Shown: piece after piece, positions 27,431-45,700 of the stretch | How the letters are laid out: every line of letters begins with the position of its first letter | Numbering within the stretch: the stretch's first letter is position 1 | DNA from: Alphaproteobacteria bacterium | GTDB lineage: Bacteria; Pseudomonadota; Alphaproteobacteria; UBA828 | Direction of reading: 5' to 3' | DNA: 64,000 nucleotides | NCBI GenBank assembly: GCA_965214705.1 | Contig: CBDCCI010000002.1 | Span: 1,376,001-1,440,000 of the forward strand | Program-made: the position numbers and the translations under genes | Notes under the pieces: generated by a model | What the model was told of the DNA's origin: nothing | Seen by the model: the letters and a program-made list of their open reading frames with translations, nothing else | Database searches by the model: none

Positions 27431-27988
27431 TATCGATCTCCCTGGATCGCGACGGCGCGCCGCCGGACCGATCCGGCGACGGTCCGTCGCAGGGGTCGAT
27501 GCTAACCACTGGTGATCGGGAGGCTGCTGGGGATCCGCCACCCGACGGGCGGAGCGCCACTGACGCAACCGGGAAGCGAACGCACAGAACAAACGGCACC
27601 CGCGACGCCTCGGAAATGAATGAACTCTACGCCGCTAACTCCGCGTAGCGGCTTCGTTCAAGGGAACCGTACGCAATGAAATTGCTCCCGGTCTCCGGGC
27701 CATCCCAGCCGGAAAGAGGGCCGTCATCGTGTTCACGGTCGACGACGCAAACGAGGAAGTACTCGTTCACGTCGTAAGCTACAGCGGAGCCGATTGGATC
27801 AGCCGCAGCCGCGCGAGAGTCTTGTAGTTCCGCACCGCCGGTGTTCAAAGGTTAACGCCCCGAGTAGCGGTGATTGCAGGGAGACACTCGGTTCCCCAGA
27901 GTATTGCAGGCTGCTCCAGTACGAACGCGGATTCATGCGTAAGACGGAAGCTCTACGATCCATGAACAAAATGGCCGAACGAGGCGAG

Positions 27989-30538: not shown

Positions 30539-30563
30539 CAAGAGGCGAGCGAGTTCCTAGTGT
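30535..30563 (+). promoter_or_regulatory. Sigma70-type promoter for the cascade operon
   Basis: TTGACA (30535-30540), 17-nt spacer, TAGTGT (30558-30563). Confidence 0.7.
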
Positions 30564-30614
30564 TTCCAAAACAGTGTAACTGGCAGAAGATCATCTTCCC
30601 TAGGAGATCCCACG

Positions 30615-30830
30615 ATGCGCTTCAGCATAGGTCTTGGTTTAGGGGTCGATTGGCGACGCGACAGCCATGTCAACCACCGCTGGACGGCACTTGTGATGCT
30701 GGCGCTTAGCGCCATATGTTATCCCCGAAGCTGGATTCGGGATAGACCTAGTGTGACTGGTACGCCCGTGTCGCACCGGATGGATTCCCCGTTGACTGCG
30801 GGGGTGAGAAGGGACCGGATCGGCGAATGA
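30615..30830 (+). CDS. Putative 71-aa leader ORF overlapping the CRISPR-like mini-array
   Basis: AGGAG at 30602-30606. Its stop overlaps the cse1 start (ATGA). No recognisable family. Confidence 0.35.
   Translation: MRFSIGLGLGVDWRRDSHVNHRWTALVMLALSAICYPRSWIRDRPSVTGTPVSHRMDSPLTAGVRRDRIGE
30718..30811 (+). ncRNA. CRISPR-like regulatory RNA (CreR/CreA-type mini-array)
   Basis: Pseudo-repeat GTTATCCCCGAAGCTGGATTCGGGATAGACCT, a 32-nt spacer at 30750-30781, and pseudo-repeat GGATTCCCCGTTGACTGCGGGGGTGAGAAG. The spacer 5' end matches 30573-30585 next to AAC. Confidence 0.8.
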
Positions 30831-32371
30831 ATCTCATTTCCGATCCGATCCTGACCCTTGCCGGTCGTACCAGGGCTTCGCTCCCCGGTCTGCTCGCGGC
30901 GATGGCGTGCCGCGAGGTGCGGGGATTTCCGGCGCTGCGTCCACACCAGCGGCCAGCTTGGCACATGTTTCTTGTTCAGCTCGCTGCCCTAGCGCTCTGG
31001 ACGGCTGGCCGCGACGATCAGCCCCTCGACGTCGAATCCTGGGCCGAGACCCTACGTGGGCTGACGGCGGACCATCCGGACGACTCGCCCTGGCGATTAG
31101 CGGTTGCGGATCGGAGCAAGCCCGCCTTCATGCAGGCCCCGGCACCGGACGGATTGAAGTGGTCCGAGGTCCCCACGCCCGACGCACTCGACATGCTCAT
31201 CACCGCGCGCAATCACGACTTGAAGCAGGCGGTCGCGCGGCAGGCGACGGCCGAAGATTGGGTCTACGCCCTGGTGTCGCTGCAGACCTGCGAAGGATAC
31301 GGCGGTAGAGGGAACAACGGGATTGCGCGCATGAACGGCGGTTCGTCCAGCCGCCCGTTGCTGGGCCTCGCGCCGACCCGCGGAGAGGACATGTCCATCA
31401 ATCCCTCAGCTTGGTGGGCGCGGGACGTGAAGCTGTTGTTGGCTGCACGGGAGAAGGGCGCGCATGGCCAACTCGGCACGCAGGGCGGACCGGCACTGCT
31501 TTGGTGCCTCGACTGGCCGGAGGGCCGACAGCTCGACATTCGCACACTCGATCCCTGGTTCATCGAGACTTGCCGCCGCGTGCGCTTGACAGAGTCGGGC
31601 GGGCGGCTATCGGCGCACCGCGCTACTTCTAATGGAACGCGCATCGACGCAAAAGCGCTCAGGGGCAATACCGGCGATCCCTGGACGCCGGTCGACAACA
31701 GTGGCAAGAGCCTGACCCTCAGCGAGAGTGGCGACTTCCACTATCGCCGCCTCTACGACTTGCTGTTCTCCGGCAATTGGAACAGGCCGCTTCTCGCTTG
31801 TCCAGGGGACGACGAGACCGTTGACATGCTCGTCGTGGCGGAGGCGTTCGCGCGCGGCAACAGCAAGACCGGGGGCTTCAAGTCGCGCGTGGTGCCGGTG
31901 CCGGGAAGAGTCTTGCCGCTATTCTCGTCCGGCGATATCGGCAGACTTGCCTCGGAGCAGCTAAAGGAGATCGAGAGCTTCGACAAGGCGCTGGCATATG
32001 CACTCGCGTTGACGGCTGCGGGCGGCAAGACCGAAGACGGCGCCGTTGGAAAAAAACACTTCGCTCATGCCGGCCCCGCCCGAAAGCGCTTCGATCAGGC
32101 CGCCGACCGGCTCTTCTTTCCGAGCCTGTGGCGTCGGACCGGCGCGGCAACCGAAAGCGACGACGCGGCCTTCGAGGCGAGGCGGGCATTCCTTGCCGAT
32201 CTGTGGGAATCGGCGAAGACCGAGTTCGAGGCGGCGCTGCCGTCCATCCCCTGCCCGACGGCCTTGCGTCCGAGGGCTGAGGCACGAGCACGGCGGGCGC
32301 TCCGTAACCGAGTATGGAAACACTACTACCCCGAGTTGTTCGACCGGGAGGGGGCCGATGACGCTGTCTGA
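30827..32371 (+). CDS. cas8e: Cas8e/Cse1 (CasA)
   Basis: MNLISDPIL start, PAFMQ and GNTGDPW motifs, and first position in a I-E cascade operon. Confidence 0.88.
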   Translation: MNLISDPILTLAGRTRASLPGLLAAMACREVRGFPALRPHQRPAWHMFLVQLAALALWTAGRDDQPLDVESWAETLRGLTADHPDDSPWRLAVADRSKPAFMQAPAPDGLKWSEVPTPDALDMLITARNHDLKQAVARQATAEDWVYALVSLQTCEGYGGRGNNGIARMNGGSSSRPLLGLAPTRGEDMSINPSAWWARDVKLLLAAREKGAHGQLGTQGGPALLWCLDWPEGRQLDIRTLDPWFIETCRRVRLTESGGRLSAHRATSNGTRIDAKALRGNTGDPWTPVDNSGKSLTLSESGDFHYRRLYDLLFSGNWNRPLLACPGDDETVDMLVVAEAFARGNSKTGGFKSRVVPVPGRVLPLFSSGDIGRLASEQLKEIESFDKALAYALALTAAGGKTEDGAVGKKHFAHAGPARKRFDQAADRLFFPSLWRRTGAATESDDAAFEARRAFLADLWESAKTEFEAALPSIPCPTALRPRAEARARRALRNRVWKHYYPELFDREGADDAV

Positions 32372-32939
32372 CGACAAACAGGCGGAAGCCGCGTGCGCCG
32401 CCGCCAAGAGGTTGCAGCACCTACCGCCTGGTCCACTTGCCGAATTGCGCCTGATGACCGAAGAGGCGGCAGCGCCGGAATTCTGGCGACTGGCCGCGCG
32501 GCATCCCGACACCATCGGAAATCGAAAGCAATACCCCGAATGGACTGCCATCGTGCGCGTCCTTGCGATCCTCACGAAGAAGGGCAATCCCGCCAGGCGG
32601 CGTCCTCTGCACGATCGTCGACGCTCTCTCGGTGAAGTGTTGTGTGACGGAGGCGACCAGAAATGGCCACCGCCGGGCGGTGGACCTCCCAGACCCGTGT
32701 TCAGCGAACGGCGTCTCGCGCAACTTATGGCAGCGCGTGGGCCGCAGCGCGCGGTCCTGCTGACGCGCGCGGCCCGCGCCCTGGCCCGAAGCCGCGACCC
32801 AAGCGGCGGCATCAATGTCGTCGATATCGCCTATACACTGTTGGCGCCCGATAACCGACGTCAACTGGCCGAACCCTACTACCGCCGGCTCGACCGCGCA
32901 GAGCTCGCCGCCCAGGAATCAGAGGAAGGAACGGAATGA
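32358..32939 (+). CDS. cse2: Cas11/Cse2 (CasB)
   Basis: PGPLAELR, FSERRLAQL and LAEPYY, plus operon position. Confidence 0.85.
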   Translation: MTLSDDKQAEAACAAAKRLQHLPPGPLAELRLMTEEAAAPEFWRLAARHPDTIGNRKQYPEWTAIVRVLAILTKKGNPARRRPLHDRRRSLGEVLCDGGDQKWPPPGGGPPRPVFSERRLAQLMAARGPQRAVLLTRAARALARSRDPSGGINVVDIAYTLLAPDNRRQLAEPYYRRLDRAELAAQESEEGTE

Positions 32940-34066
32940 TGACCCGTCCCCGTTTTCTGCAAGTTCACACCTTGACCTCCTATACAGCCGCGCTGCTCAA
33001 CCGCGACGACAGCGGATTGGCCAAGCGGTTACCCTACGGCGGAGCGCTGCGCACGCGGATTTCCTCACAGTGCTTGAAACGGCATTGGCGCATCGCCGAT
33101 GATCCGCACGCGCTGGACAGGATTGACGGGGCGACTGCAGCGTTCCGTTCGCGCGAGTTGGTCACACGCAAGGTCATCGGTCCCTTGCGCGATAACTTCT
33201 CCGAGGACGTTGTCGCGGCTCTTGAAGGCGAATTTCAATTGGCGGTCTATGGTGACAAGGGCGGCGACAGGGCGAGCCGCCAGACCCTGTTGTTGGGCGA
33301 GCCAGAGCTGAATTGGCTCAAGAACCAGGCCGAGGATTTGGCGCAACAGGCGTCGGGCGATGCGAAAGCGGCGGCAGACGGCGCTCAGAAATGGCGAAAG
33401 GATTTCCAGGCGAACATCAAGACGATGCGCGACGGCGCATCGCTGCCTGCCGGCTTGGTCTCCGCGTTGTTCGGGCGCATGGTCACATCCGATCCGGAAG
33501 CCAACATCACCGCGCCCGTGCATGTCGCCCACGCCTTCACCGTCCACGAGGAAGAGCCGGAGAGCGACTACTTCACGGCGGTCGACGACCTTGGGGAGGA
33601 CGAGCCCGGTGCAGACACGATCCAGGAGACCGAACTCACTTCCGGCCTGTTCTATGGCTACGTCGCGGTCGATCTGTCCGGCCTCGCGACAAATCTCGGC
33701 GGCGACACCGGCATGGCGGGCAGCGTGCTGCACAATCTCGTCTACCTCATCGCCGAGGTCTCACCCGGCGCCAAGCTGGGCTCGACCGCCCCTTACGGCC
33801 GGGCAGCCCTAATTCTACTGGAGGCCGGCGACCGGCAGCCGCGCAGCCTCGCCGAGGCATACCGGACACCTTGCGCTCCGCACGTGGGCCCGGCCATCGA
33901 GGCGCTCACGAATCATCTCGTCGCGCTCGACCAAGCCTACGCCACCAGCGAGGAGCGGCGGACGATGTCGCTGGCGAACGAGACCAATGTCCCTGGCGCC
34001 GAGCGCGGTACGCTGGCCGATTTGGCCGAATGGGCCCGAACCCTGCCGGAAAGGGCTATGCCGTGA
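32936..34066 (+). CDS. cas7: Cas7/Cse4 (CasC)
   Basis: LNRDDSGLAK, RISSQCLKR, ALFGRM, VAHAFTVH and DYFTAVDD. Confidence 0.95.
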   Translation: MMTRPRFLQVHTLTSYTAALLNRDDSGLAKRLPYGGALRTRISSQCLKRHWRIADDPHALDRIDGATAAFRSRELVTRKVIGPLRDNFSEDVVAALEGEFQLAVYGDKGGDRASRQTLLLGEPELNWLKNQAEDLAQQASGDAKAAADGAQKWRKDFQANIKTMRDGASLPAGLVSALFGRMVTSDPEANITAPVHVAHAFTVHEEEPESDYFTAVDDLGEDEPGADTIQETELTSGLFYGYVAVDLSGLATNLGGDTGMAGSVLHNLVYLIAEVSPGAKLGSTAPYGRAALILLEAGDRQPRSLAEAYRTPCAPHVGPAIEALTNHLVALDQAYATSEERRTMSLANETNVPGAERGTLADLAEWARTLPERAMP

Positions 34067-34785
34067 CGCACCGCTGGCTGGTCCTGCGCCTTGAAGCGCC
34101 CCTGATGGCCTTTGGCGGCGTGGCCATCGACCAGGTCGGCCCGACGCGGAACTTCCCGGCCGCCTCGATACTGACAGGACTGATAGGCAACGCACTTGGC
34201 TGGCACTGGTCGGACCGGGACGCGCATCAGGCGACGCAGGATCGGTTGGTCTTCGCGGCCCGTTGCGACCGGGAGGGTGCAGTGTTGACCGACGCGCAGA
34301 ATGTGCAACTCGCCGGGAACGACAAGGGCTGGACGACCCATGGTGCACCGGAGGGACGGACAGGTGCCAGTTACGACGCGCCGCACAGGCGGTTCCGAGA
34401 CTACTTAGCCGACGCATCGCTGCGCATCGTCCTGCGTCTGGATCCGGTCGAGGAAGCGCCGACTCTAGTCGCGGTGGCGGAGGCAATCGACCGACCCGCG
34501 CGGCCGCTGTTCCTGGGGCGCAAGCCGTGCCTGCCCTCAGCGCTGCTGCTAGAGAGTGGAGACGAGCGGTGGGTGAGCGCCGGCAACGCTTGGGAAGCAC
34601 TCCGCGCCGTACCCGGTGCCGGAACGCCAGCGCGCGCCCAATGGCCCTCCGGCCAGGGGCCTGAGTCGGGTGACAACGTGGATCGCATTGCCGATTTGGC
34701 CGACCTGCGGAACTGGCGCACCGGCCTGCACGGCGGGACGCGCCGGGTGGTGGAGGGTTGGATCGTTCCGGCCGCGGCGGCATGA
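34063..34785 (+). CDS. cas5: Cas5e (CasD)
   Basis: LRLEAPLMAFG, GLIGNALG, RDYLADA and LFLGRKPCLPS, with a GTG start overlapping the cas7 stop. Confidence 0.93.
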   Translation: MTHRWLVLRLEAPLMAFGGVAIDQVGPTRNFPAASILTGLIGNALGWHWSDRDAHQATQDRLVFAARCDREGAVLTDAQNVQLAGNDKGWTTHGAPEGRTGASYDAPHRRFRDYLADASLRIVLRLDPVEEAPTLVAVAEAIDRPARPLFLGRKPCLPSALLLESGDERWVSAGNAWEALRAVPGAGTPARAQWPSGQGPESGDNVDRIADLADLRNWRTGLHGGTRRVVEGWIVPAAAA

Positions 34786-35561
34786 CGACGTTCCATCTGG
34801 TCCGCGCTCCCGTCGACACCGGCCGCTTGGCCCGATGGGCCGACGAACGCGGTTGGGCCGGGTTGAAAGGCTCCGTGTATGACGAAGGCCGCGCCCTGCA
34901 CCATCTCGTGACCGAAGTCTGGGGACCGGGAGTCCTCCCCTGCTTCAGGTTTCTCGTCCCGCCCCGCCGACGGGCCGGCAATCTCTACGCGTACTCGGCA
35001 ATGGACGCGGAAGACTTGCGCGCAGCGGCGGACGTCCAGGCCCCGCCGGAACACCTGAAGGTCCTGTGCCTCGACGGGCTGGAGAGCAAGCTGATGCCGG
35101 CGGACTGGCGCGCGGGGCAACGGTTGGGCTTCGATCTGCGGGCTCGACCGATCCGACGCCTGCGGCGCGACCTGAACGGCCCGAGAGAGCGGGTCCCCGC
35201 TGGACGCGAGGTCGATGCGTTCCTGGTAGAGGCCTTGCGCGGCCACCCCGAAGCGCCGGACGGCATGAGCAACGAGGGCCGGACACGGCAGGAGGTCTAT
35301 CTCGACTGGCTGGCCGAACGGCTTACCCCCACGGCCACGCTCGACCGTTCAGCAACTCATCTTGTTCGTTTCAGGCGCCAGCGGGTCGCACGAGAGAATC
35401 GCGATTCTGAGGGGCCGGACGCCACCGTACACGGCGTTCTCGTCGTGGCCGATCCGACAGCGTTCTCCGCGCTACTGATGCGGGGCGTTGGGCGGCACCG
35501 AGCCTATGGCTACGGCATGCTGCTGCTGCGCCCGCCCGGCCGCCCGATTCCGGTGCGGTAG
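34782..35561 (+). CDS. cas6e: Cas6e/Cse3 (CasE)
   Basis: C-terminal Gly loop GVGRHRAYGYGMLLL, and GFDLRARP. Confidence 0.93.
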   Translation: MTTFHLVRAPVDTGRLARWADERGWAGLKGSVYDEGRALHHLVTEVWGPGVLPCFRFLVPPRRRAGNLYAYSAMDAEDLRAAADVQAPPEHLKVLCLDGLESKLMPADWRAGQRLGFDLRARPIRRLRRDLNGPRERVPAGREVDAFLVEALRGHPEAPDGMSNEGRTRQEVYLDWLAERLTPTATLDRSATHLVRFRRQRVARENRDSEGPDATVHGVLVVADPTAFSALLMRGVGRHRAYGYGMLLLRPPGRPIPVR

Positions 35562-36446
35562 ATGCTGAAGGGCCGGCTTGGACTCGACAGCGCCAAGGTC
35601 CCGCACAAGGATCGGGCCGGACTTCTCTATCTCGCGCGCGGCGCGTTGACAGCCAGAGACGGCACGCTCGCCTTCCTGCAAGGGCAAGCGACAGCGGCGG
35701 ACGCGCTCGGGCCCGGCGATTACGCGATCCCGCTTCAGGGAGTCTCGATGATTTTGCTCGGCCCTGGCTCCACGGTCAGCCATGACGCGTTGCGTCTACT
35801 TGCCTACGCCCGCACCGCGCTCGCGGCGGTGGGAGAGGACGGGGTTCGTCTCTACACCGCCCCTCCGCTGATTCCCGACCGCTCCGGCCTTGCGCGGCGG
35901 CAAGCGCGGCTGTGGGCCGACGACGCCAAGCGCATTGCCGTTGCCCGTCGAATGTACGCCTGGCGCCTGGGCGAAGTATTGCCGCATCGCTCGCTGGACG
36001 TGCTGCGCGGCATCGAGGGCGCGCGAATGAAGGAGAGTTATCGCCTGCACGCCCAGCGAGCCCGGATCGAGTGGCGTGGACGCCGCTATGATCGCGCCGA
36101 CCCGGGAGCGGCGGACCTGCCCAATCAGGCCCTCAACCACGCATCGAGCGCGGTCGAAGGCGCCGCTGCCATCGCTGTCGCCGCTACCGCGACGATCCCG
36201 CAGCTCGGTTTCATCCACGAGGACGCGGGGCAATCGTTCGTTCTGGACATCGCTGACCTTCATCGCGACACCATCACCATTCCCTGTGCTTTCCGTGCTG
36301 CCAAGCGAGTCGCCGAACGCCCCGACGAGAACATCGAGCGGCTTACCCGCCGGCTGACGGGGGAAACATTGGCACGCGAACATGTGATCCCAGCGATGAT
36401 CGAGCGAATAAGATCCCTCTTCGAGGAACCCTCCGGGGAGGAGTGA
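35562..36446 (+). CDS. cas1: Type I-E Cas1
   Basis: LLGPGSTVSHDAL, LRGIEGARMK, NQALN, LGFIH and FVLDIADL. Confidence 0.96.
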   Translation: MLKGRLGLDSAKVPHKDRAGLLYLARGALTARDGTLAFLQGQATAADALGPGDYAIPLQGVSMILLGPGSTVSHDALRLLAYARTALAAVGEDGVRLYTAPPLIPDRSGLARRQARLWADDAKRIAVARRMYAWRLGEVLPHRSLDVLRGIEGARMKESYRLHAQRARIEWRGRRYDRADPGAADLPNQALNHASSAVEGAAAIAVAATATIPQLGFIHEDAGQSFVLDIADLHRDTITIPCAFRAAKRVAERPDENIERLTRRLTGETLAREHVIPAMIERIRSLFEEPSGEE

Positions 36447-36754
36447 TCGGACGAATGGCCATGGCGATGGTCGTCACCCGCAACGTGGAAGCCCGCTATC
36501 GCGGCTTTCTGACCTCCGTCATGCTTGAAGTCGCACCCGGAGTCTACGTGGCACCCGACCTGTCGGCGGGCGTGCGGACACGAGTGTGGGACGTGTTGTC
36601 GGCCTGGTGGTCGGCACTGCGCAAAGGGTCGATCGTCCTGGTATGGAGAGACACAACAGCCGTTGGGAAATTGCGCATTCAGACGCTCGGCGAGCCTCCT
36701 AAAGAGATCGTGGACGCAGACGGTGTCCTTCTCGTAAAACGGCAAGGGGATTAG
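36443..36754 (+). CDS. cas2: Type I-E Cas2
   Basis: VVTRNVEARYRGFLTSVMLEVAPGVYV...IVDADGVLLV. Confidence 0.93.
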   Translation: MIGRMAMAMVVTRNVEARYRGFLTSVMLEVAPGVYVAPDLSAGVRTRVWDVLSAWWSALRKGSIVLVWRDTTAVGKLRIQTLGEPPKEIVDADGVLLVKRQGD

Positions 36755-36811
36755 CGCATATCACCCGCTGCTCTTTGACATTGTAAATATATCAAGGGGT
36801 TGATCGCTAGA
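36755..36811 (+). promoter_or_regulatory. CRISPR leader with IHF consensus site
   Basis: AT-rich. TATCAAGGGGTTG (36790-36802) fits WATCAANNNNTTR and ends 9 nt before repeat 1. Confidence 0.75.
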
Positions 36812-38092
36812 GGCTCCCCCGCCCGCGCGGGGATAGCCCCAGAGAAGGGACTCAAGATTATGACAAGCACGGGGCTCCCCCGCCCGCGCGGGGATAGCCC
36901 CATACTAGTCCTCGTCAGCAGTCATGCGGCGGGGGCTCCCCCGCCCGCGCGGGGATAGCCCCCGGCCTCTGACCAACATCAGCATCGCCTATATGGCTCC
37001 CCCGCCCGCGCGGGGATAGCCCCATCCCGGTGATGAAGCAGTCCGACGCGTACTGGGCTCCCCCGCCCGCGCGGGGATAGCCCCCTGCATCATCCTGCAC
37101 GAATCTCTTCAGCACAGGCTCCCCCGCCCGCGCGGGGATAGCCCCGGTCTAAACAGGGAGACAACAGGGAGACTGGAGGCTCCCCCGCCCGCGCGGGGAT
37201 AGCCCCCTCTTGCCGTATTCTTCCGAAATAACCTGTGCGGCTCCCCCGCCCGCGCGGGGATAGCCCCGAGAGGTGAGGAACAACGGCCGGGGTCGCTAAG
37301 GCTCCCCCGCCCGCGCGGGGATAGCCCCCCGTACGTGTGCCACGACGCGGAGGCCGCCGTGGCTCCCCCGCCCGCGCGGGGATAGCCCCGATCCCCTCCA
37401 GGAGCGCCGGCCGCAGCTCGTGGCTCCCCCGCCCGCGCGGGGATAGCCCCGCCTTGTTTGGCTCGCGGGATGCGCTCTTCACGGCTCCCCCGCCCGCGCG
37501 GGGATAGCCCCAATGAAGGGACTCAGATATGACGTGCACGGAAGGCTCCCCCGCCCGCGCGGGGATAGCCCCCGAGCAGCACTACCCCGACGCCCTCGTG
37601 CTCGGGCTCCCCCGCCCGCGCGGGGATAGCCCCCTCGACGGCGCCAACCTCGCCCGCGCCAACCTGGCTCCCCCGCCCGCGCGGGGATAGCCCCCTTGAC
37701 GCCGTAGTAGTCAGAGCTGCCCGTTCGGCTCCCCCGCCCGCGCGGGGATAGCCCCGCCATGAAGCTGGTGATCGACTACGCCGACATGGCTCCCCCGCCC
37801 GCGCGGGGATAGCCCCGCAGAAGCCGACGCTGGGACCAGCGATTCGAAGGCTCCCCCGCCCGCGCGGGGATAGCCCCGATCCCTCGGTCGGCGCTTTCGT
37901 CATGATCATGGCTCCCCCGCCCGCGCGGGGATAGCCCCATTGCGGTCGAGTCCGCCAGCTCCCGCACGAAGGCTCCCCCGCCCGCGCGGGGATAGCCCCG
38001 AGAGACATGACCGATTCAGCCCACCCAGCCTGGCTCCCCCGCCCGCGCGGGGATAGCTGCGGCCTCAACACCCGCCACATCTCAGCATTAGT
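36812..38092 (+). CRISPR. Type I-E array, leader-proximal part: 21 repeats and 21 spacers
   Basis: 29-bp repeat GGCTCCCCCGCCCGCGCGGGGATAGCCCC with 32-bp spacers and a 61-bp period. Repeat 21 ends in ATAGCTGC. Confidence 0.98.
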
Positions 38093-40063
38093 CCGAACTT
38101 CCCCAGCAGATATTGAGCTAAGTTGTTGCGGTGGCTTTCCAAACCACCGTTTCGCGGAGTCGCGTACTGGGTACGCTACAGGCTGACGCCAAGCAGATCG
38201 AGCGCCTGGCGCTGTACCGGCGTCGGCTTGGTGACCAGATCGAAGGGCGGTGCTCCGGCGAGTTTCGGTTGAACGCGGTTCCTGGCGATGGTCGCCAAAT
38301 CATCGAGGAGCGTGCGGAAGCTGTGCACCGGCATCCCGTCTGGCGTGCGTTTGCCGGCGGCCTTGCGACGGGCGGAGGGCGAGGGCTTTGCCGGTGAGAC
38401 GATGGAAGCGCGCGCGGCGTCCGCAGCGGCCGGGTCGTCCTCGTCGAACAGGATGGGGGCGAGCCTTTGGCGCATGTGCCATTCGACGTGGTAGGCGAGC
38501 ATGCACAGCAGCACGTGGGCGCGCACGCGCTCGGGGCGGTAGTGGTGGATGGGCCGCACCTTGAGGTCGACGGTCTTGACGCTGCGGAAGGCGCGCTCGA
38601 TGCGGCTCAATCCCTTGTAGGCGCGCACCGTGTCCTCGGCTCCGAGCTCGCCCTCGGGCACGCTGGTGCGGATGACGTAGAGGCCATCGAGCGCCGCCTC
38701 CTCGGCGATCCGCTCCCGGTTGCGCTGCCAGGTGAAGCCGTCATCGGCGATCTCCAGCTCGAAGTGCTTGGCGACCTTGTGCTTGCCGATGACCTTGCCC
38801 ACGCGCAGGCCGATCTTGTCCTTGCCGGCGAGGCGGCGCTTGGCGCGCCGTGTTGCCGCTCGGATCTCGTCGAGGTCGCCCTCGGTGGCCTGGAGCAGGG
38901 CCTCGCGCTTGCGCGCCCTCTCGACGGCGAGCAGCGGGTTGCGGCAGGCGATCAGGCGTTCGCCGGGGAAGTCGGGATGATGGATCTCGGCCAGGTCGCG
39001 TTCGTCGAAGAGCGAGGGCTGCAGCGTTCCGCTGGAGGCCAGCTCCCGGATCGCCGGCGCCCGCAGCGCGCTGATCCACTCCAACCCGGCCGGCTTCACC
39101 TCCTCGCGGATGCGCGCCTCGGTGAGCATGCCGCGATCGCCCACCAGCACCACCCGCGAGAGGCCGAAGCGCCGGCGCAGCTTGTCGATCTGGGAGCCCA
39201 GGGTGGCCGGATCGGCGGTGTTGCCCTCGAACACCTCCACCGCCACCGGGCAGCCCTGCGCGTTGCACAGGAGCCCGAACACGATCTGCAGCTTGCCGCG
39301 CTTGCCGTCGCGGGAGTAGCCGTGATGCGCCAGCGGGCAGCAGCGCCCCTCCAGCCATGTCGAGGTGACGTCGTAGAGTACCAGAGCGCCGTCCTCGAGG
39401 TGACGCTCGGCCAGACGCCGTTCGATCCTGCCCTGGCGCTCAAGCAGCCAGTCCATCGCCTGGTAGAGTTCGTCTTCGTCGACCTCGCCCAGGTCGAGGG
39501 CCTCGCCGAGGCCGCAGCTCAGGGTGTCGCCGCTGAGCCCGCGTGCGGTGGCGAGCTTCGAGCGCGGCGCCACGATGCGGGCGACGATCATCGCCGCCGC
39601 GAGGTCGCGCAGCCGCGAGCGCCTGGCCGCGATCAGCCGTTCCAGACCGAGGCCGCGCAGAGCCCCGAGCACCGCTGCGACATGGCCGAAGGGACGCGAG
39701 CGGGTGATGTCGAAGCCGTCGTCCTCGCGGCGCTTCTCGCCGCGGGGCACAGCGGTTCCGCCGCGCAAGAGGATGCGCAGGCCCTCGACCAGGTGCGGGG
39801 GCCACCTGGAGAGGTTGGCGAGGGTGCGCTTTCTGATTTTTCCGCCTTCGCGCCATGATTCGCGCAGGAGGATTGCGGGGGGTGAGTTCCGGTTTGGGAC
39901 GCTTTCGATATACATGGGGACGGATCATAGTGCCTGACCCGCAAAATATCAACGCCCCATCCTCATTTACATGGGTACACTTTGCATCCGCACCAACGGC
40001 CGATACGTCCGCAAAAACAAAGACTTATGCCCGAAAATCAGCGAAATTCTGGGGGAAGTTCGG
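38093..40063 (-). mobile_element. IS1634-family element inserted in the CRISPR array
   Basis: TIR CCGAACTTCCCC/GGGGAAGTTCGG. The 6-bp TSD ATTAGT is at 38087-38092 and 40064-40069. Confidence 0.93.
38176..39915 (-). CDS. IS1634-family transposase
   Basis: MYIESVPNRNSPPAILLRESWREGGK, LYDVTSTW, GYSRDGK, VGDRGM and IERAFRSVKTVDLKVRPIHH. Confidence 0.93.
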   Translation of the reverse strand: MYIESVPNRNSPPAILLRESWREGGKIRKRTLANLSRWPPHLVEGLRILLRGGTAVPRGEKRREDDGFDITRSRPFGHVAAVLGALRGLGLERLIAARRSRLRDLAAAMIVARIVAPRSKLATARGLSGDTLSCGLGEALDLGEVDEDELYQAMDWLLERQGRIERRLAERHLEDGALVLYDVTSTWLEGRCCPLAHHGYSRDGKRGKLQIVFGLLCNAQGCPVAVEVFEGNTADPATLGSQIDKLRRRFGLSRVVLVGDRGMLTEARIREEVKPAGLEWISALRAPAIRELASSGTLQPSLFDERDLAEIHHPDFPGERLIACRNPLLAVERARKREALLQATEGDLDEIRAATRRAKRRLAGKDKIGLRVGKVIGKHKVAKHFELEIADDGFTWQRNRERIAEEAALDGLYVIRTSVPEGELGAEDTVRAYKGLSRIERAFRSVKTVDLKVRPIHHYRPERVRAHVLLCMLAYHVEWHMRQRLAPILFDEDDPAAADAARASIVSPAKPSPSARRKAAGKRTPDGMPVHSFRTLLDDLATIARNRVQPKLAGAPPFDLVTKPTPVQRQALDLLGVSL

Positions 40064-40069
40064 ATTAGT

Positions 40070-40586
40070 GGCTCCCCCGCCCGCGCGGGGATAGCCCCGT
40101 CGAACGGCAGCGGGTGGTCCACAACGCCCTGGCTCCCCCGCCCGCGCGGGGATAGCCCCCGGGCATCCAGCGATCCACGTAAGTCAGGTGGGGCTCCCCC
40201 GCCCGCGCGGGGATAGCCCCCAACATGGATGACCAGCCCTCGGCGTTCAGCCGGCTCCCCCGCCCGCGCGGGGATAGCCCCTATCGTTGCGGCGCCAACT
40301 GGCGGACGCGGAGGGCTCCCCCGCCCGCGCGGGGATAGCCCCTGCCCGATCGTGCAGTTGCCGGCACCGGCGGTGGCTCCCCCGCCCGCGCGGGGATAGC
40401 CCCTTTTCGCAGGACGCCAGCCCGACGAAGCGGCCGGCTCCCCCGCCCGCGCGGGGATAGCCCCCCTCCGGCGACGCTCGAGATGCTCACGGAGGTGGCT
40501 CCCCCGCCCGCGCGGGGATAGCCCCCAACGGTGGTGCATCAACTCGACGGCACACTCGGCTCCCCCGCCCGCGCGGGGATAGCCCC
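40070..40586 (+). CRISPR. Type I-E array, distal part: 9 repeats and 8 spacers
   Basis: Same 29-bp repeat and 61-bp period. The last repeat (40558-40586) is perfect. Confidence 0.98.
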
Positions 40587-40782
40587 CCACCGCATAGGCC
40601 GCAGTCGCGATCAGCGAGGAGGTGATGGAGGTGCGGAAGCGGTCGAGCGCCGGCCCCAGCCCCGCCACGGAGACGGCGAAGCGCCGGTTGGCGACGATGG
40701 CCCGGTTGACGCCCGCCTCATAGGGCAGCGCGTTAGCGGAGAAGTCGACGTGGGCGCCGGCGACGCGGATGGATGTGGGCAT
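40587..40782 (-). pseudogene. 5' fragment of a probable phage tail tape-measure gene truncated at the CRISPR repeat
   Basis: GGAGG RBS, MPTSIRVAGAHVDFSANALPYEAGVNRA...IATAAYAVG, running into the repeat with no stop. Lies downstream of chaperone-like ORFs. Confidence 0.55.
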
Positions 40783-40820
40783 GGGCGTCTATTACCCTCC
40801 CCCCATGGGACAGACGAAGA

Positions 40821-41291
40821 CTATTGCGGCGTCATCTCCGCACGAACGCCCTGCCCCACCATTATGTCGATGCACCGCTCGCGCAGTTGCTCATAGATGT
40901 GCGGATGCACTTCTTCAGGATATTGCGCCACGATCCCCTCAAGCACCTTGCGCGTCTCCTCGATTATCTCCCGCCCAGCGGCGCGATACGCGATGAGCGT
41001 CCCGTCGGGATCGAAGTTATCCCAGAGGCTGTCCTGGGAGATGTACTCGCGGAGGCAAGGCGTGATGACCTTGGCCTCCATCTCGGTCTCGTCCGGTGCG
41101 ACGCGATACTTGTGCACGGAGCCGAGAGGCTCCATCTCGGCCAGCTCGCAGCCACGCTCGCAGAGCCTGACCGCGATGGGGTCATCGTATCCGAGACACT
41201 CGGACTTGCAATCCGCCAGAGCGGGTCCGATGAACATGGCCAGAGCCAAAATCCCGGCCACAGCCATCCCGAAGTACGGGATTGTCCGCAT
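40821..41291 (-). CDS. Hypothetical secreted protein (moron-like)
   Basis: Signal-peptide-like N-terminus (MRTIPYFGMAVAGILALAMFIGPALA) and a Cys-containing mature part. Confidence 0.65.
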   Translation of the reverse strand: MRTIPYFGMAVAGILALAMFIGPALADCKSECLGYDDPIAVRLCERGCELAEMEPLGSVHKYRVAPDETEMEAKVITPCLREYISQDSLWDNFDPDGTLIAYRAAGREIIEETRKVLEGIVAQYPEEVHPHIYEQLRERCIDIMVGQGVRAEMTPQ

Positions 41292-41300
41292 TGACGACAT

Positions 41301-41931
41301 CTATCCCCTCCCCATCTCGGCCAGACACGCTTGGCGGTCAGCCTCCATATCGGCCTCGCGTTGCGCCGCCGCGCTCGCCCCGTCTTCCTTGAACTCCTCC
41401 CAAGGGAACCACGAGGCCACGTCCGGGCGCTTGCCGGTGACCTTGAGCTCGAAGAAAACACCGATTTTCGCGAGCGTCAAACGGATGTCGCTGAGCAACA
41501 CCGGATCGGGCGGCACCCGATCGAAGTGCCGCTCCCAAAGCTCTACCTCATGGGGATTATCGAGGAAGTGCTGGAGCGGCTGCCCCGTCTCCCTTGATGC
41601 TAGGTAGGGCCGTCGCCGACGGCTTCGTCTACCTCCGCCGCCTTGTCGATGACGCCGGCGGCGTCGGCAGGATCGCCGCCCTCGCCGTCCTCGGTCATGT
41701 CGATCAGCTTGTCCAGCTTGCAGAGCTTGAGCGCGGCGTTCACGACGAGGGGGAGTCGCTCGAACTTCTCCGGCTCTTCGCGCGATTTGCCGAGCAGCCG
41801 ATCCCAGGCGTCCTCGTCCATGTCGTCGTGCCCTACGACGGTGATGACGAGGGCATTGCAGATGATCCGCTCGAGATCGACGGCCAGCCGCGCGCCGAGA
41901 TCGGATTCGTCCTCGCCCTTCTGCTTCTTGA
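41301..41931 (-). pseudogene. Probable phage tail assembly chaperone pair (G/GT-like), 5' end cut by IS1634
   Basis: An acidic ORF ending ...VGDGPT* (41600) overlaps a -1 frame ORF lacking its own start (...LWERHFDRVPPD...MGRG*), upstream of the tape-measure-like gene. Confidence 0.5.
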
Positions 41932-41943
41932 CCCAAGTTGGCA

Positions 41944-42836
41944 GTGCGCCGTGGAAAGGCGCTCTCTTTCAGCGGGTGCGAATCCCGCCCAACAACTGTC
42001 GCTCCGGTTGGTAGCAGCCAGGGCGGTTCATGGAGGTGACGACATGGGCTGAAGCACCTTGGTGGAAAAGGGCCACCGTTGGGTGGCTCAGCGACCGTGC
42101 GGGCCGGAACGTGAGTGAACGCTGAGCAGGCCTCGAAACGGGTAATGCGAGTGTCGACCCTCCTGCCAAAAGGGGAAGACCGTCGCCGATCGGGAAGAGA
42201 GCGACATGCGCACCGATCGCGGCTCGCCGGGGTAGTGGCGCCGGCACGCACGGAAGAGGAAGAGAGCAGCAACACGGGAAGCCCTGACGGTGGTGCGCGC
42301 ACATCAACCGGAAGCCCGCGAGGGACAGGCCGGGCCGTCAGGGTGGCGGAGAGGCCCGTAAGACTGAGGACGCCGGGTAATGCCGGCCGAGGAAAGGGGC
42401 CTCAGGTGTGGAGGGGTGCCTTGAAGGGAGAAGGGCCAGGGAGTGGCTAAGCCTGTAACCCCGAGAATGGCCGGAGATCCCGGCGGCATCACATGCAAAT
42501 GGAAGCGAAGGGGCCGCCCGGAGCAAATCTGCGCGGTACCGCCGGGGCATCGACAGGCCCGGCGGTCAAGGCGGACGACGAATGGACCGCGATGGTTGAG
42601 GGGATGCGCACCCTTGCGACCGGATCGGAGGTTCCGATCACGTGCGCCATCGTCGCGAGCTTTGCCTGTGTGCGAGATGCATGATCCCACTGGAGAGCTC
42701 GGTGCTCGAAATGGGCACGCCGGGTTCGGAGAGCGGGGACCGGAAACGCGGCCAAGGGAGCCGGATTGAGGCCCGCAGCGAAAGCGGCGGAATTGCCACC
42801 GGACCCTACAGCAGGCGCGCCAGTCCTCGACTCTAC
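41944..42836 (+). ncRNA. ORF-less group II intron (IIB-like, 893 nt)
   Basis: 5' GTGCG, D5 GAGAGCTCGGTGCTCGAAATGGGCACGCCGGGTTCGGAGAGCGG, a long D6 ending CTCGACTCTAC, and EBS1 TGCCAA (42164-42169). D4 holds only degenerate IEP ends. Confidence 0.9.
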
Positions 42837-42928
42837 CTTTTCCGCTGTCTGTGTTCCCTATTGGTTTGATTCAACGCGATATTTTTCTCGGTCGATTCCA
42901 ACATGGCCCCACATTTTGTGAGATTCTG

Positions 42929-44740
42929 TCAGCTCATCAGACGGGTCCTCGTGCGGTGGATGGCGGGGTCCACGCCCGCCGCCGAGGAGATTGCGGCAAC
43001 CTCGGCGGCCGGGCGCGTGTCCTGGCGGTTGACGATCAAGGTGCCGTCGGTCTGGCGCAGGCGCGTGGTGATCCGCACCCAGGTCCGCATGCTCTCGCGG
43101 ATCGATGCCCAGCACTTGTGGATGTCCCGCGCGGCCAGCCGGGTACGGATCAGATGCACGGCGTGGTAGGCCAGCACGGCGATCAGCAGGTGGGCCGCGA
43201 TGCGCCGGTCGAGCTGGTGCCAGATCGGGCGAAGGCCGAGTTCGGATTTCAGGCTTCGGAATGTCGCCTCGATATCCGTGATCCGCCAGTACGTCCGCAG
43301 GACCGTCTCGATATCCCAGTCGACGTGGCTGGTGCGCAGCACATAGGCGCCCGCGCCCTCATCGGCCTCGTCGTATCGCGGCCTGCGCTTGAAGCGCACG
43401 GCGGTGGCATTGGGGCCGGTGTCCGCCTTCTCGACCGTGATCTCGTAGTGCCTGGCGACGGCGGAGAAGCGCTGCTTGAGGCGGCCTATGCTCTCCAGCA
43501 CCTTGTCGTAGCGCTTGAGGCGGCCCTTGACCGCAAGGCCGCCGTGGAGCCTTTGCAGCGCCGCCTCGAAGCGGTTCCGCCTCAGGCCGATGATCGCGTT
43601 CTCGGCCTTCTTCTTGCCCTCGCTGACGACGTAGAGCCGCGCCTCGCCGTCCTCGCTGGCAAGCCGCCAGGCCCGCACCTCGTGGCGCGCGCTGGTGATC
43701 AGCAGCGCCTCGGGCCCGCCCTCCGGCAGCGGCGGCCTGGCGCCGCGGCTGACCGCGATCCAGTCGTAGCCCTGCTCGCCCAGCCAGACGATGTTCTCCT
43801 CGGTGGCGATGCCCGCGTCCATGACCACCGTGGGCTTCGGCGCCGTGCCGCCGCACACCGCCTTGAGCCGGGCCAGCGCCTCGTGCAGCGTGCCCGGCTC
43901 GCTCACGTTGCCGGGCAGGATCTCGCAACTGCGCGGGAAGCCCGCGCCGTCGAGCGCCAGCGCCAGCGTGATGAGGGGACAGTCGTCGCGCTTCTGCTTG
44001 GAGCGCCCGAACCTGGGAAGCTCGCCGTCGGTGTGGCCGTGGTAGTGGACGTTGGTGAGATCGTAGAAGGCGATCGTCTCGGGCAGGTCGAGCAGCGCGC
44101 GCTCACGGTTGAACAGTTCCCTCTGGATGGCGGCCCGGTGGCGCCAGAGCAGGTCGCCGATGCGATAGAGCGTCTTGCGCCGCAGCGCCTTGCGGTCGCC
44201 CTCCAGGCCCAGGAGCTCGGCGGCCGCGCTGTCGTGGCGGAGCCAGCGGCTGGTATCACGCTCGCTGGCGGGATGGACCATCCTGGCGACGATCAGCGCG
44301 CTGGCGATGCGTCCGTCGCGGCCCTTGATGTCGAGGCCGTGGAGGATTTCGGCGAAGCCAAGGTCGTCGAGGGCCTTGAGGCACAGGCGCTCGCAGCCGA
44401 CGGTGCGCGGGTTCTCATGCTCCAGGGTATCGAGGTCGACGGTGGCGATCTCGGGCTTGCGCGCCTCTTCCTGCATCGCCTCGGCACGGAACCCCCTGGC
44501 CCTGAGCTTGGCGACGATGTCCTCGGCTGCGGCCTGCACGTCCGGGACGGCTTGGAGCAGCGGCGGGCGGCCGTGCAGCAGCGCCTCGGCGAGTTCGGCC
44601 ACTTCGCGCCATTTCTCCTTCGGCACCGGATAGTCGGTACCGAGATTGAGCAGCGTCCTGTGGCGCACCTTGTCGCCGACGCGCTGGGCGAGCACGAGGC
44701 GATGGCTTCGGACCGGCTGGCCGTCCTTGTCGGTGTGCAC
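42929..44740 (-). pseudogene. IS1634 transposase, N-terminally truncated
   Basis: Near-identical to the copy 1 transposase but lacks the first residues (MFIR...). Confidence 0.8.
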
Positions 44741-45043
44741 CTACTTTAGCGAATATTTGGCGAGCGCACCGTGACGCAGGGTTGCAATTTTCTCCTGTAT
44801 GTTGGTTATGATACAGTGGGTTATGGTTGGCGTCAAGAACGGTTGGGCCGGGCCTGGAGAACACATGGGCTGATCTTGTGTCACTGAGTAGTTGCATTCG
44901 GGGAAACAGGTAGTGGAGTTTTTCGTGGAGCGCTGGTATGGTCGTGGCATCCATTGTGGCTCGCTATGTAGGGACACAATAGAGACATAGGATTATGTCT
45001 GCGACGAATACCATAGGAATATCGTCACACATTCTACGTCATT

Positions 45044-45700
45044 ATGCAGCTGCGTGTCGCTGTCTCCACAGGCCTTGCCGGACGGATGGCCGCGATTAGG
45101 GAGGAGGCCGGCGGACGCCGCCAGCGCGCGGTGATGGCCACCGATACGGAGTGGGAAGGGATCGGCCGGGCGGCTGCGGCGAGCGGCATGGACCTGTCGC
45201 GCTTCGTGATCCATCGCGCGCTGGACCGGGACCTCTGCCGCCGGAGGTTCTGCGCCGGGCGGTCCGCGAGATGCTGGTGATGTCGAGGCTGGAGGAGAGG
45301 CGGCTGCGCGGGGCCGGCGAGGCCTGGGAGGACGCCTGCGACGCGGTGGACGAATGGATCGAGCGGGAGGGCACGCTGGACCGGCTCACCGATCCCGGCG
45401 CGGCGAACCGCTGGAAGGCGGCGGGGCCGGCCGAGGAGGACGGGTCGTGACGGAGGAGGCGGTGCGGGCCCGTCAGGCGTGGGCCCGTCAGGCGTCAGCG
45501 GAGCCTGCACTGCAAGCCGGCGAAGCAGCAGGCGATGATCCGGGAGCGCGCGGCGGCGGCGGAGAAGACCGTGTCGCGCTATGTTCTGGAGCTTGCGCTC
45601 GCCGACGATCCGGACCGCAATCCTCTGGTGCTGACGGAAGCGGAACAGGTTGAGCAGCGGGACGGGGTGCGATCGCCACGTACAGCGTGTCATGCTCCGC
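45044..45700 (+). pseudogene. Two frameshifted MobC-like ribbon-helix-helix genes
   Basis: ATDTEWEGIGRAAAASGMDLSRFVIHRAL and AMIRERAAAAEKTVSRYVLELAL. Frames are broken and the region ends at IS21. Confidence 0.55.

Follow-up and report, generated by a model that had tools for sequence, protein, structure and literature searches.

How does a perfect repeat of a CRISPR array come to be followed, at the very next base, by the interior of a phage gene? This question is raised by a type I-E array in a stretch of DNA from an alphaproteobacterium of the lineage UBA828 (assembly GCA_965214705.1, contig CBDCCI010000002.1, positions 1,376,001 to 1,440,000). The whole stretch of 64,000 nucleotides (nt) is called the window here, and positions given without a replicon name are counted from its first letter. 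An earlier note on this DNA, made from the sequence alone, described the array as fused to 1.3 kb of phage tail DNA and offered two ideas, a giant spacer or a scar of recombination between a spacer and a phage. The array does not end at this joint. Its other half lies far away on the same replicon, and the two halves were once connected by a single phage fragment set between two perfect repeats. A second oversized insert, from a different phage, sits further along the same array, and the anatomy of both inserts is compatible with a faulty acquisition event, an origin to which we give about an even chance.

The joint between repeat and phage DNA

The repeat that closes the array half in the window (40558-40586, plus strand) agrees with the consensus at 29 of 29 positions. 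The earlier note was correct in calling it intact but took it for the trailer of the array; ancestrally it was the leader-side repeat of an oversized insert, and the remainder of the array is elsewhere on the replicon. The next base is mid-gene, as had been noticed: an open reading frame (ORF) on the minus strand starts with ATG at 40782 and runs for 65 codons plus 1 nt into the repeat. The phage DNA in the window extends from 40587 to 41931, through a TTGA at 41928-41931, with its genes on the minus strand and thus antisense to the array. It amounts to 1345 nt of a fragment of 1633 nt and is unique in the genome. A protein of 271 amino acids on record for the replicon, P0011 (39967-40782, minus strand), is an annotation artefact, in which translation of the phage gene start carries on across eight repeats of the array and their spacers.

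An assembly artefact would explain the joint, or the separation of the two halves by 650 kb, as a misjoin at repeated sequence, and the region is indeed full of repeats of 2-3 kb. However, Logan contigs of 1402 nt from two of the four runs (X3 and X6) cover 40559-41960 with zero differences and thereby cross 28 nt of the repeat, all of the phage DNA in the window and 30 nt of the insertion sequence (IS) beyond it. A second study (runs X1 and X2) contains parts of the same phage DNA. Logan contigs are built from 31-mers and cannot tie the phage DNA to one particular spacer, but the joint from repeat to phage DNA is present in the reads and is real. The two loci are also linked independently of assembly order by a 4-bp duplication and a restored ORF, both described below, and a misjoin within the nested elements would leave the oversized insert itself untouched and affect no more than how far apart the halves lie and which way they point. 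An artefact is therefore highly improbable.

Two halves of one array

The distal half of the array is found on the same replicon (C3 of the genome, G000), about 650 kb away and inverted, with repeats at 2065084-2066128. In the direction of the array, the distal locus consists of a reversed intron in the right terminal repeat of an IS, 292 nt of coding DNA, seven perfect repeats with six spacers, an insert of 560 nt, a repeat with two changes, one spacer and a last repeat with three changes. Degenerate repeats occur only here, at G000:C3:2065084-2065173. The assumption that the array ends in the window is contradicted by this locus, since further phage DNA, perfect repeats and the degenerate trailer all lie within G000:C3:2065084-2066420. 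In the genome as a whole, the array repeat occurs in these two places only, in 30 forward and 9 reverse copies.

The 292 nt comprise the last 47 codons of one gene, for which no homologue was found, and the first 46 codons of another gene with its own start (G000:C3:2066281-2066420). The latter has its continuation in the window. The IS in question is of the IS1634 family and is called IS_B here. Its full length is 2160 bp, and about 50 full copies in the genome have 4-bp target duplications directly at their ends. TTGA stands beside the IS_B end at 41928-41931, and its complement stands beside the IS_B end at C3:2066417-2066420. If IS_B and one TTGA are removed, an uninterrupted ORF of 155 amino acids is obtained, which ends in the residues of ORF D' (41600-41927, minus strand), the C-terminal 109 codons that are startless in the window. 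A profile of five homologues matches this product at positions 44-148 in the window (E 1.9e-39) and at positions 1-44 at the distal locus (E 3.3e-10), and it has no other match in 400 other genomes of the class. Furthermore, a third element has entered IS_B, and at its insertion point the truncated body in the window and the remainder at the distal locus have the same 12 nt (CTTGTCGGTGTG). An inverted overlap of 8 nt (GGGTCAAG) was also considered as the joint of the two phage pieces; it was rejected, the true duplication being TTGA, directly at the ends of the IS.

Put together, the pieces form a contiguous phage fragment of 1633 nt lying exactly between two perfect repeats. It contains the 47-codon gene end, the gene of 155 amino acids (called chaperone-like below), ORF C, ORF B and the start of a tape measure gene, all antisense to the array. 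The two halves of the array were once joined via this fragment. The ancestral order was leader, 29 spacers, repeat, 1633-nt fragment, repeat, six spacers, repeat, 560-nt insert, and two degenerate repeats separated by one spacer. The term giant spacer in the earlier note fits this ancestral state. Later, IS_B was inserted into the chaperone-like gene with duplication of TTGA, introns entered both of its terminal repeats, and another element entered IS_B. The present separation and opposite orientation of the halves need at least one inversion. Integration of a whole phage, in which the tape measure start and the distal gene end would be the two parts of one split gene, was rejected because the chaperone-like gene comes downstream of the distal gene end and the two pieces make up a single short, contiguous stretch.

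The genome is large, at 7.9 Mb; those of 20 other members of the genus span 2.8-6.3 Mb. Its 'contamination' score of 8.7% could come from duplicated DNA in a heavily IS-laden genome.

Phage genes in the 1633-nt fragment

The identity of the fragment is clearest at its leader-side end. The tape measure start (40588-40782, minus strand; first 65 codons, cut at the repeat) is 51-80% identical to the N-termini of eight proteins, of which seven are 1081-1999 amino acids long and one has 262; seven of the eight carry a precomputed PF10145 match. One of the homologues, P0012, matches PF10145 at 43.5 bits and PF09718 at 30.6 bits, both above cut-off. The 65-residue fragment itself lies upstream of these domains. 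The homologues found lie on ENA or Logan contigs.

The next gene, ORF B (40821-41300, minus strand), encodes 159 amino acids with an N-terminus that resembles a signal peptide by eye. It has no match in Pfam or PHROGs, a word-based search of 5.8 billion proteins returned only near-identical matches, and the top score in an Atlas search was 0.75. ORF C (41301-41606, minus strand; about 100 amino acids) is in the -1 frame with respect to the chaperone-like gene, and a 120-residue translation has no Met before residue 105. ORF C could be a G/GT-type frameshift extension, as in the tail chaperones of siphophages. No obvious slippery heptamer was seen near it (41301-41640, minus strand).

In the earlier note, this DNA was read as the part of a phage tail operon that encodes the chaperone and the tape measure. 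For the tape measure the reading is solid; for the chaperone it is weaker. The five homologues of D' (130-183 amino acids) align from their residue 43-67 on. No Pfam match was obtained for the chaperone-like gene, nor did Foldseek return a match at E <=0.001 for its model. The leads toward a chaperone are a match of a single homologue to PHROG 344 at E 0.16, Phage_TAC_2 on 11 of 30 Atlas matches, and a structural resemblance to the HK97 chaperone 2ob9 (TM-scores 0.44/0.55, but E 2). The upstream position of the gene and the -1 frame of ORF C fit the G/GT type, but ORF B separates the gene from the tape measure. Together these leads point weakly to a tail assembly chaperone-like protein. Nothing significant was found with Pfam and PHROGs for ORFs A to D, for the ORF B homologue B' of the second insert, for P0005-P0009 or for the 30-residue methylase start of that insert.

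No intact homologue of the phage, which the earlier note had suggested to look for, was found in genomes of the genus, class or order, in viral records or in IMG/VR. Specifically, the phage DNA has no match in the 20 other genomes of the genus, the tape measure start has no relatives in 48 other genomes of the order, five viral records contain no relative of the phage, and IMG/VR gave no match with ORF B, D', P0007, P0006 or P0013. Likewise, no related array with the first 32 nt of the fragment as a normal spacer was found among the spacers and genomes searched.

A second oversized insert

The insert of 560 nt in the distal half contains the end of one ORF, the ORF B homologue B' (L003:255-740, minus strand; 32% identity over 107 amino acids, E 5e-9) and the first 30 codons of a DNA methyltransferase gene, here in sense orientation. 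The methyltransferase start matches 262 phage records at <=67% identity, several of them annotated as DNA methyltransferase, and it is cut after Asn-Pro-Pro. This insert is DNA of another phage and of another region, again bounded by repeats. The small, apparently secreted protein shared by the two inserts could be a coincidence of related phages, or it could reflect selection for keeping the inserts.

With 1633 and 560 nt, neither insert has the canonical spacer length of 32 +/-1 nt. Nor are they insertion sequences or transposons: their ends are mid-gene phage DNA, and the IS elements of the region are nested in the phage DNA or lie apart from it.

The adjacent motif and the anatomy of the junctions

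The protospacer adjacent motif (PAM) of this system was estimated from a conserved site that is matched independently by spacer 3 of the present array and by spacer 6 of the array in G014, a genome of the same genus. The set of sites for spacer 3 consists of 26 IMG/VR contigs and one metagenome-assembled genome; a 28th match, L042, was left out, being itself a CRISPR array. In the two closest viral matches (30/32 and 29/32), AAC stands directly upstream. Over all 27 sites, the upstream triplet is AAC in 12, GAT in 6, AAT in 4, GAC in 4 and TTG in 1. In the type I-E system of Escherichia coli, the last base of the repeat comes from the PAM, and all 37 perfect repeats of the present array end in C, which would fit a PAM with C as its last base, such as AAC. 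By these alignments, AAC looks like the PAM of this system. No true protospacer was found when the spacers were compared with their own genome, with the inserts, with 43 other genomes of the family and with 50,697 phage records. Candidate protospacers of spacer 14 (37634-37665) were only pentapeptide-repeat genes, at 85-88% identity in several family genomes and more than 150 mycobacteriophage records, and were rejected as low-information matches.

In the 1633-nt insert, an AAC stands at positions -35 to -33, that is, just before the last 32 nt (AAC frequency in the insert 10/1625). In the 560-nt insert, an AAC stands before the last 31 nt (frequency 4/559), or before 32 nt if the variant first base of the next repeat, an A, is derived from the phage; such an A would complete the Tyr codon of the NPPY motif of the methylase. 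The leader-distal end is thus 32 nt from a 5' AAC in the first insert and, with a shift of 1 nt, in the second. Neither AAC has been removed, as it would be in a normal spacer: it is retained together with a flank of 1598 nt in the first insert and about 526 nt in the second.

The leader-proximal junction is different. After residue 65, all eight homologues of the tape measure read G-(V/I)-G (V in seven, I in one), which implies C-N-C, and not AAC, before the first base of the first insert in the array sense. The earlier note had placed a PAM exactly here, at 40586/40587, with the intact gene continuing GTG GGT T, by which residue 67 would start with T; the eight homologues conflict with this prediction and lend it no support. 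Its choice of AAC as the motif has held up better than the place it gave to it, for the AAC sits at the leader-distal end, 32 nt before the downstream repeat.

These junctions bear directly on the idea of homologous recombination between a spacer and its protospacer. Spacers reportedly recombine with phage protospacers, a route that Varble et al. are said to have described in staphylococci in 2019. In the present case, the last 32 nt of the insert would already have been a spacer, phage DNA would have paired with it, and the PAM and flank would have been brought in. The second crossover would have been at an adjacent spacer with the same phage as its source, or else copying of phage DNA would have set out from the invading spacer end, followed by rejoining at the edge of a repeat. 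AAC followed by 32 nt at the leader-distal end of both inserts is equally expected from recombination, adjacent spacers against the same phage do exist (spacers 3 and 4 both match the contigs L046 and L056), and at the near junction of the first insert an identity of 2-4 nt with the repeat end CCCC is possible, which could have served as microhomology. The far junction thus fits a recombination scar. However, the version with two spacers needs AAC before the first base of the insert, where all eight homologues imply C-N-C, and a boundary shifted along the run of C fails to fit the number of C's. The inserts are not flanked by a duplicated spacer, and neither they nor the genome are matched by any spacer of the array. 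In addition, the near junction of each insert coincides exactly with the end of a complete repeat, which end joining is unlikely to produce twice. On balance, we consider recombination the main rival of faulty acquisition, but less likely than it: the far end is explained equally well, the near end less well.

The same precision is relevant to another explanation, in which the inserts are remnants of something larger, either a whole phage or a transduced hybrid of phage and array, reduced by deletions to 1.6 kb and 0.56 kb. The genome is heavily rearranged, with about 50 copies of one IS and with nested elements, and both fragments are cut mid-gene at both ends. However, all four junctions lie at repeat boundaries, exactly or within 1 nt, and two of them lie 32 nt after AAC. 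Random deletions are unlikely to give such precision and spacing. Nor is there other DNA of these phages in the genome. Remnants of a larger insertion are therefore improbable.

A faulty acquisition event as the possible origin

The explanation that we favour, with the even chance mentioned at the outset, is that an oversized insert is the product of faulty acquisition by Cas1-Cas2, in which the non-PAM end was measured and integrated normally and the PAM-side tail stayed untrimmed. In the two-step model for E. coli, as outlined in bioRxiv 10.1101/608976, trimming and integration of the non-PAM end come first, at the leader side. Cas1 shields the PAM end, which is trimmed only afterwards and enters at the spacer side, and repair duplicates the repeat. 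The pattern observed here is what these two steps would give if the last processing step failed. Complete repeats stand on both sides of the inserts, as full-site integration with repeat duplication would give.

The series of events may have been as follows. Cas1-Cas2 would capture phage DNA at an AAC PAM, and the non-PAM end would be trimmed and integrated normally. The 3' tail on the PAM side would never be trimmed back. The second attack would then be made by the distant 3'-OH of this tail; the step is proposed because the flank that was kept is, in the array sense, on the side into which the PAM-complementary 3' tail runs. Gap filling would duplicate the repeat, giving the order repeat, long PAM-side flank, AAC, 32 nt, repeat. 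Earlier, a like event with another phage would have produced the 560-nt insert, and the 29 normal spacers would have been added later, on the assumption that acquisition takes place at the leader end. If so, the two inserts would be natural footprints of a failure mode of adaptation, namely full-site integration with one measured end and one untrimmed tail of kilobase size, and the adaptation integrase could insert gene-sized DNA, PAM included, in vivo, often enough for two such events to become fixed. This broader claim, drawn from two instances in one genome that would have been fixed in a single lineage, we put forward tentatively, as somewhat short of an even chance.

Several points weigh against this account. 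Two aberrant events are many for about 38 acquisitions, and no documentation of the integration of kilobase DNA by Cas1-Cas2 in vivo was found in the literature consulted. The presence of the same rare small-protein family in both inserts is explained by no model. The evidence for the PAM comes from one protospacer family, and even there the spacer-3 sites matched at 28/32 or better (n = 8) are divided into AAC (3), AAT (3) and GAC (2). Spacer 4 has weaker matches (25/32 and 24/32), in the two contigs that it shares with spacer 3, with ATC and ATT upstream, and the two metagenome matches of the spacer-12 family (27/32 and 22/32) have ATG and GAG. The second insert needs the shift of 1 nt to fit the 32-nt spacing. 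The lack of a PAM at the near end is deduced from protein homologues, no intact phage having been found. Finally, a single inversion via repeats to the right of both loci was considered as the path to the present arrangement, but the flanks of the two loci share only one inverted match (549 nt, 95%), and end points of the inversion could not be identified.

Mobile elements nested in the array

The phage DNA stops at 41931 because IS_B, carrying a group II intron, was inserted there. In the window, IS_B extends from 41932 to 44737 (plus strand) and consists of a left terminus of 12 nt (41932-41943), the intron and a body (42837-44737) that is truncated at the transposase-start end, at 44737. 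Its full copies and those of related families are spread over all three replicons. The intron (41944-42836, plus strand), which has no ORF, lies 12 nt inside the terminal repeat of IS_B. It matches Rfam RF02003 at 80.2 bits (gathering threshold 49) and RF00029 at 36.9 bits (below the gathering threshold of 40). It begins with GTGCG at 41944, and stretches complementary to the 12 nt upstream were noted by eye, unscored. An intron of about 893 nt occupies both terminal inverted repeats of IS_B, 12 nt from each end and pointing inwards, the second copy being at G000:C3:2066433-2067325. All six near-identical copies of the intron stand behind the same 12-13 nt of the IS_B terminus. A free-standing group II intron at 41931, with a 13-nt 5' exon recurring by chance, was rejected, as the 12-13 nt are the IS_B terminus.

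IS_B was in turn interrupted by a multi-copy element, one end of which is at 44738-45700 in the window; its other end, with a P4-like integrase gene next to it, borders the remainder of this IS_B copy at C3:2067573. The 12 nt shared by the two parts of IS_B stand on both sides of this element. Both of its ends are repeated in the genome and are found together at C1:3377405-3381546. The copies range from about 4 kb, at that location, to tens of kb, and the present ends are 650 kb apart.

Another member of the IS1634 family (38092-40064, minus strand) lies inside spacer 21 with TTAG on both flanks and accounts for the gap of about 2 kb between repeats 21 and 22. Its transposase matches NF033559 at 325.9 bits, its ends were set by comparison with other genomic copies, and spacer 21 is 32 nt long once the element is taken out. 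Just upstream of it, repeat 21 has two bases altered at the 3' end (CCCC to CTGC). Three more near-full-length copies of this IS are present in the genome at 99.9-100% identity, and one copy of 1499 nt at 97.9%. The stretch 39916-40069 was also considered as a second leader, which would make two separate arrays; this was rejected, as the stretch is the end of the IS1634-family element, whose removal restores a 32-nt spacer.

The cas operon and the array

The array belongs to a type I-E cas operon at 27794-36754 (plus strand), in the order cas3, cse1, (cse2), cas7e, cas5e, cas6e, cas1e (35562-36446, plus strand) and cas2e (36443-36754, plus strand). Seven of the eight ORFs tried have NCBIfam matches (Cas3, Cse1/CasA, Cas7/CasC, Cas5/CasD, Cas6/CasE, Cas1e and Cas2e), and Pfam Cas1 and Cas2 are also matched. 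The ORF tried as cse2 has no family match in NCBIfam. With this exception, the type I-E gene set stands in one operon beside the array. Between cas2e and the array lies an AT-richer leader of 57 nt (36755-36811, plus strand). Comparison of the upstream flanks shows it to be nearly identical to the leader of the array in G014.

The leader-proximal part of the array (36812-40586, plus strand) consists of 30 repeats of 29 nt and 29 spacers of 32 nt, with a period of 61. The earlier note had given the same count upstream of the joint, and it is borne out once the gap in spacer 21 is recognized as an IS. At up to three mismatches, the repeat has 30 matches in the window, all on the plus strand, against an expectation of 0 from 100 shuffles. 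The repeat is of the type I-E kind, 29 nt long and partly palindromic, with the leader at the cas2 side. Three spacers (36841-36872, 37512-37543 and spacer 3 of the distal array) have a core of 11-16 nt in common (GAAGGGACTCA...), placed at the same offset, which suggests that one site in related phages was sampled repeatedly.

Significance and comparison with known systems

The case suggests an aberrant product of type I-E adaptation or of spacer-guided recombination, and the structural reconstruction is well supported. If acquisition was the cause, the array preserves in vivo a product resembling an intermediate, with a bearing on the order of integration and on the trimming of the PAM end; for type I-E, the order of adaptation has so far been known mainly from in vitro work on E. 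coli. Cas1-Cas2 would then act as an integrase of kilobase DNA in the cell, a functional link to the casposases and of relevance to molecular recording tools. Array finders and assays that score expansion by 61 bp would systematically miss such events. Whatever the mechanism, the locus is a caution for annotation: the array is on record as ending at a perfect repeat, with its other half 650 kb away and with P0011 listed as a 'protein'. The pattern of repeat, long flank, PAM, 32 nt and repeat can easily be searched for in other genomes. In titles and abstracts of the literature searched, no description of kilobase-sized spacers that retain the PAM was found, which does not prove that none exists.

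The nearest known system is acquisition in the type I-E system of E. coli, as far as it is laid out in bioRxiv 10.1101/608976. In common with it, the present locus has cas1e and cas2e by the array, repeats of 29 nt, spacers of 32 nt and a PAM 5' on the leader side; in both inserts, with the shift of 1 nt in the second, the leader-distal end is 32 nt from the PAM, as if set by the same ruler, and complete repeats stand on both sides. Unlike the E. coli products outlined there, the inserts are 1633 and 560 nt long instead of 32, the PAM and flank are kept, and the homologues imply no PAM at the leader-proximal end.

The recombination reported by Varble et al. resembles the present case in that phage DNA is joined to an array in step with a unit of 32 nt for which the phage has a PAM. 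It differs in that here no duplicate of a spacer flanks the insert and the other junction is a repeat edge with no inferred PAM; the system is type I-E, the host is a GC-rich alphaproteobacterium, and instead of being packaged the product has become fixed in the chromosome.

Long spacers (>=100 nt) in CRISPR arrays have been surveyed, and in the part of that survey which treats their content they are mostly transposon-like (Kupczok et al., 2015, PMC4524480). In both situations, the output of array finders would be an oversized spacer or two arrays, and a true IS is present in this array as well. In contrast to the transposon-like spacers described there, the insert that is left after removal of the IS has no transposase, terminal repeats or target duplication, and it runs from mid-gene to mid-gene. 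Finally, casposases, in the outline of PMC6977970, are Cas1-family integrases that join both 3' ends of kilobase DNA at staggered sites and duplicate the target, which is the type of reaction proposed here. Unlike the casposons of that outline, the present locus has neither casposon ends nor a casposase, and the proposed integrase would be the ordinary adaptation complex, acting on prespacer DNA that had not been processed.

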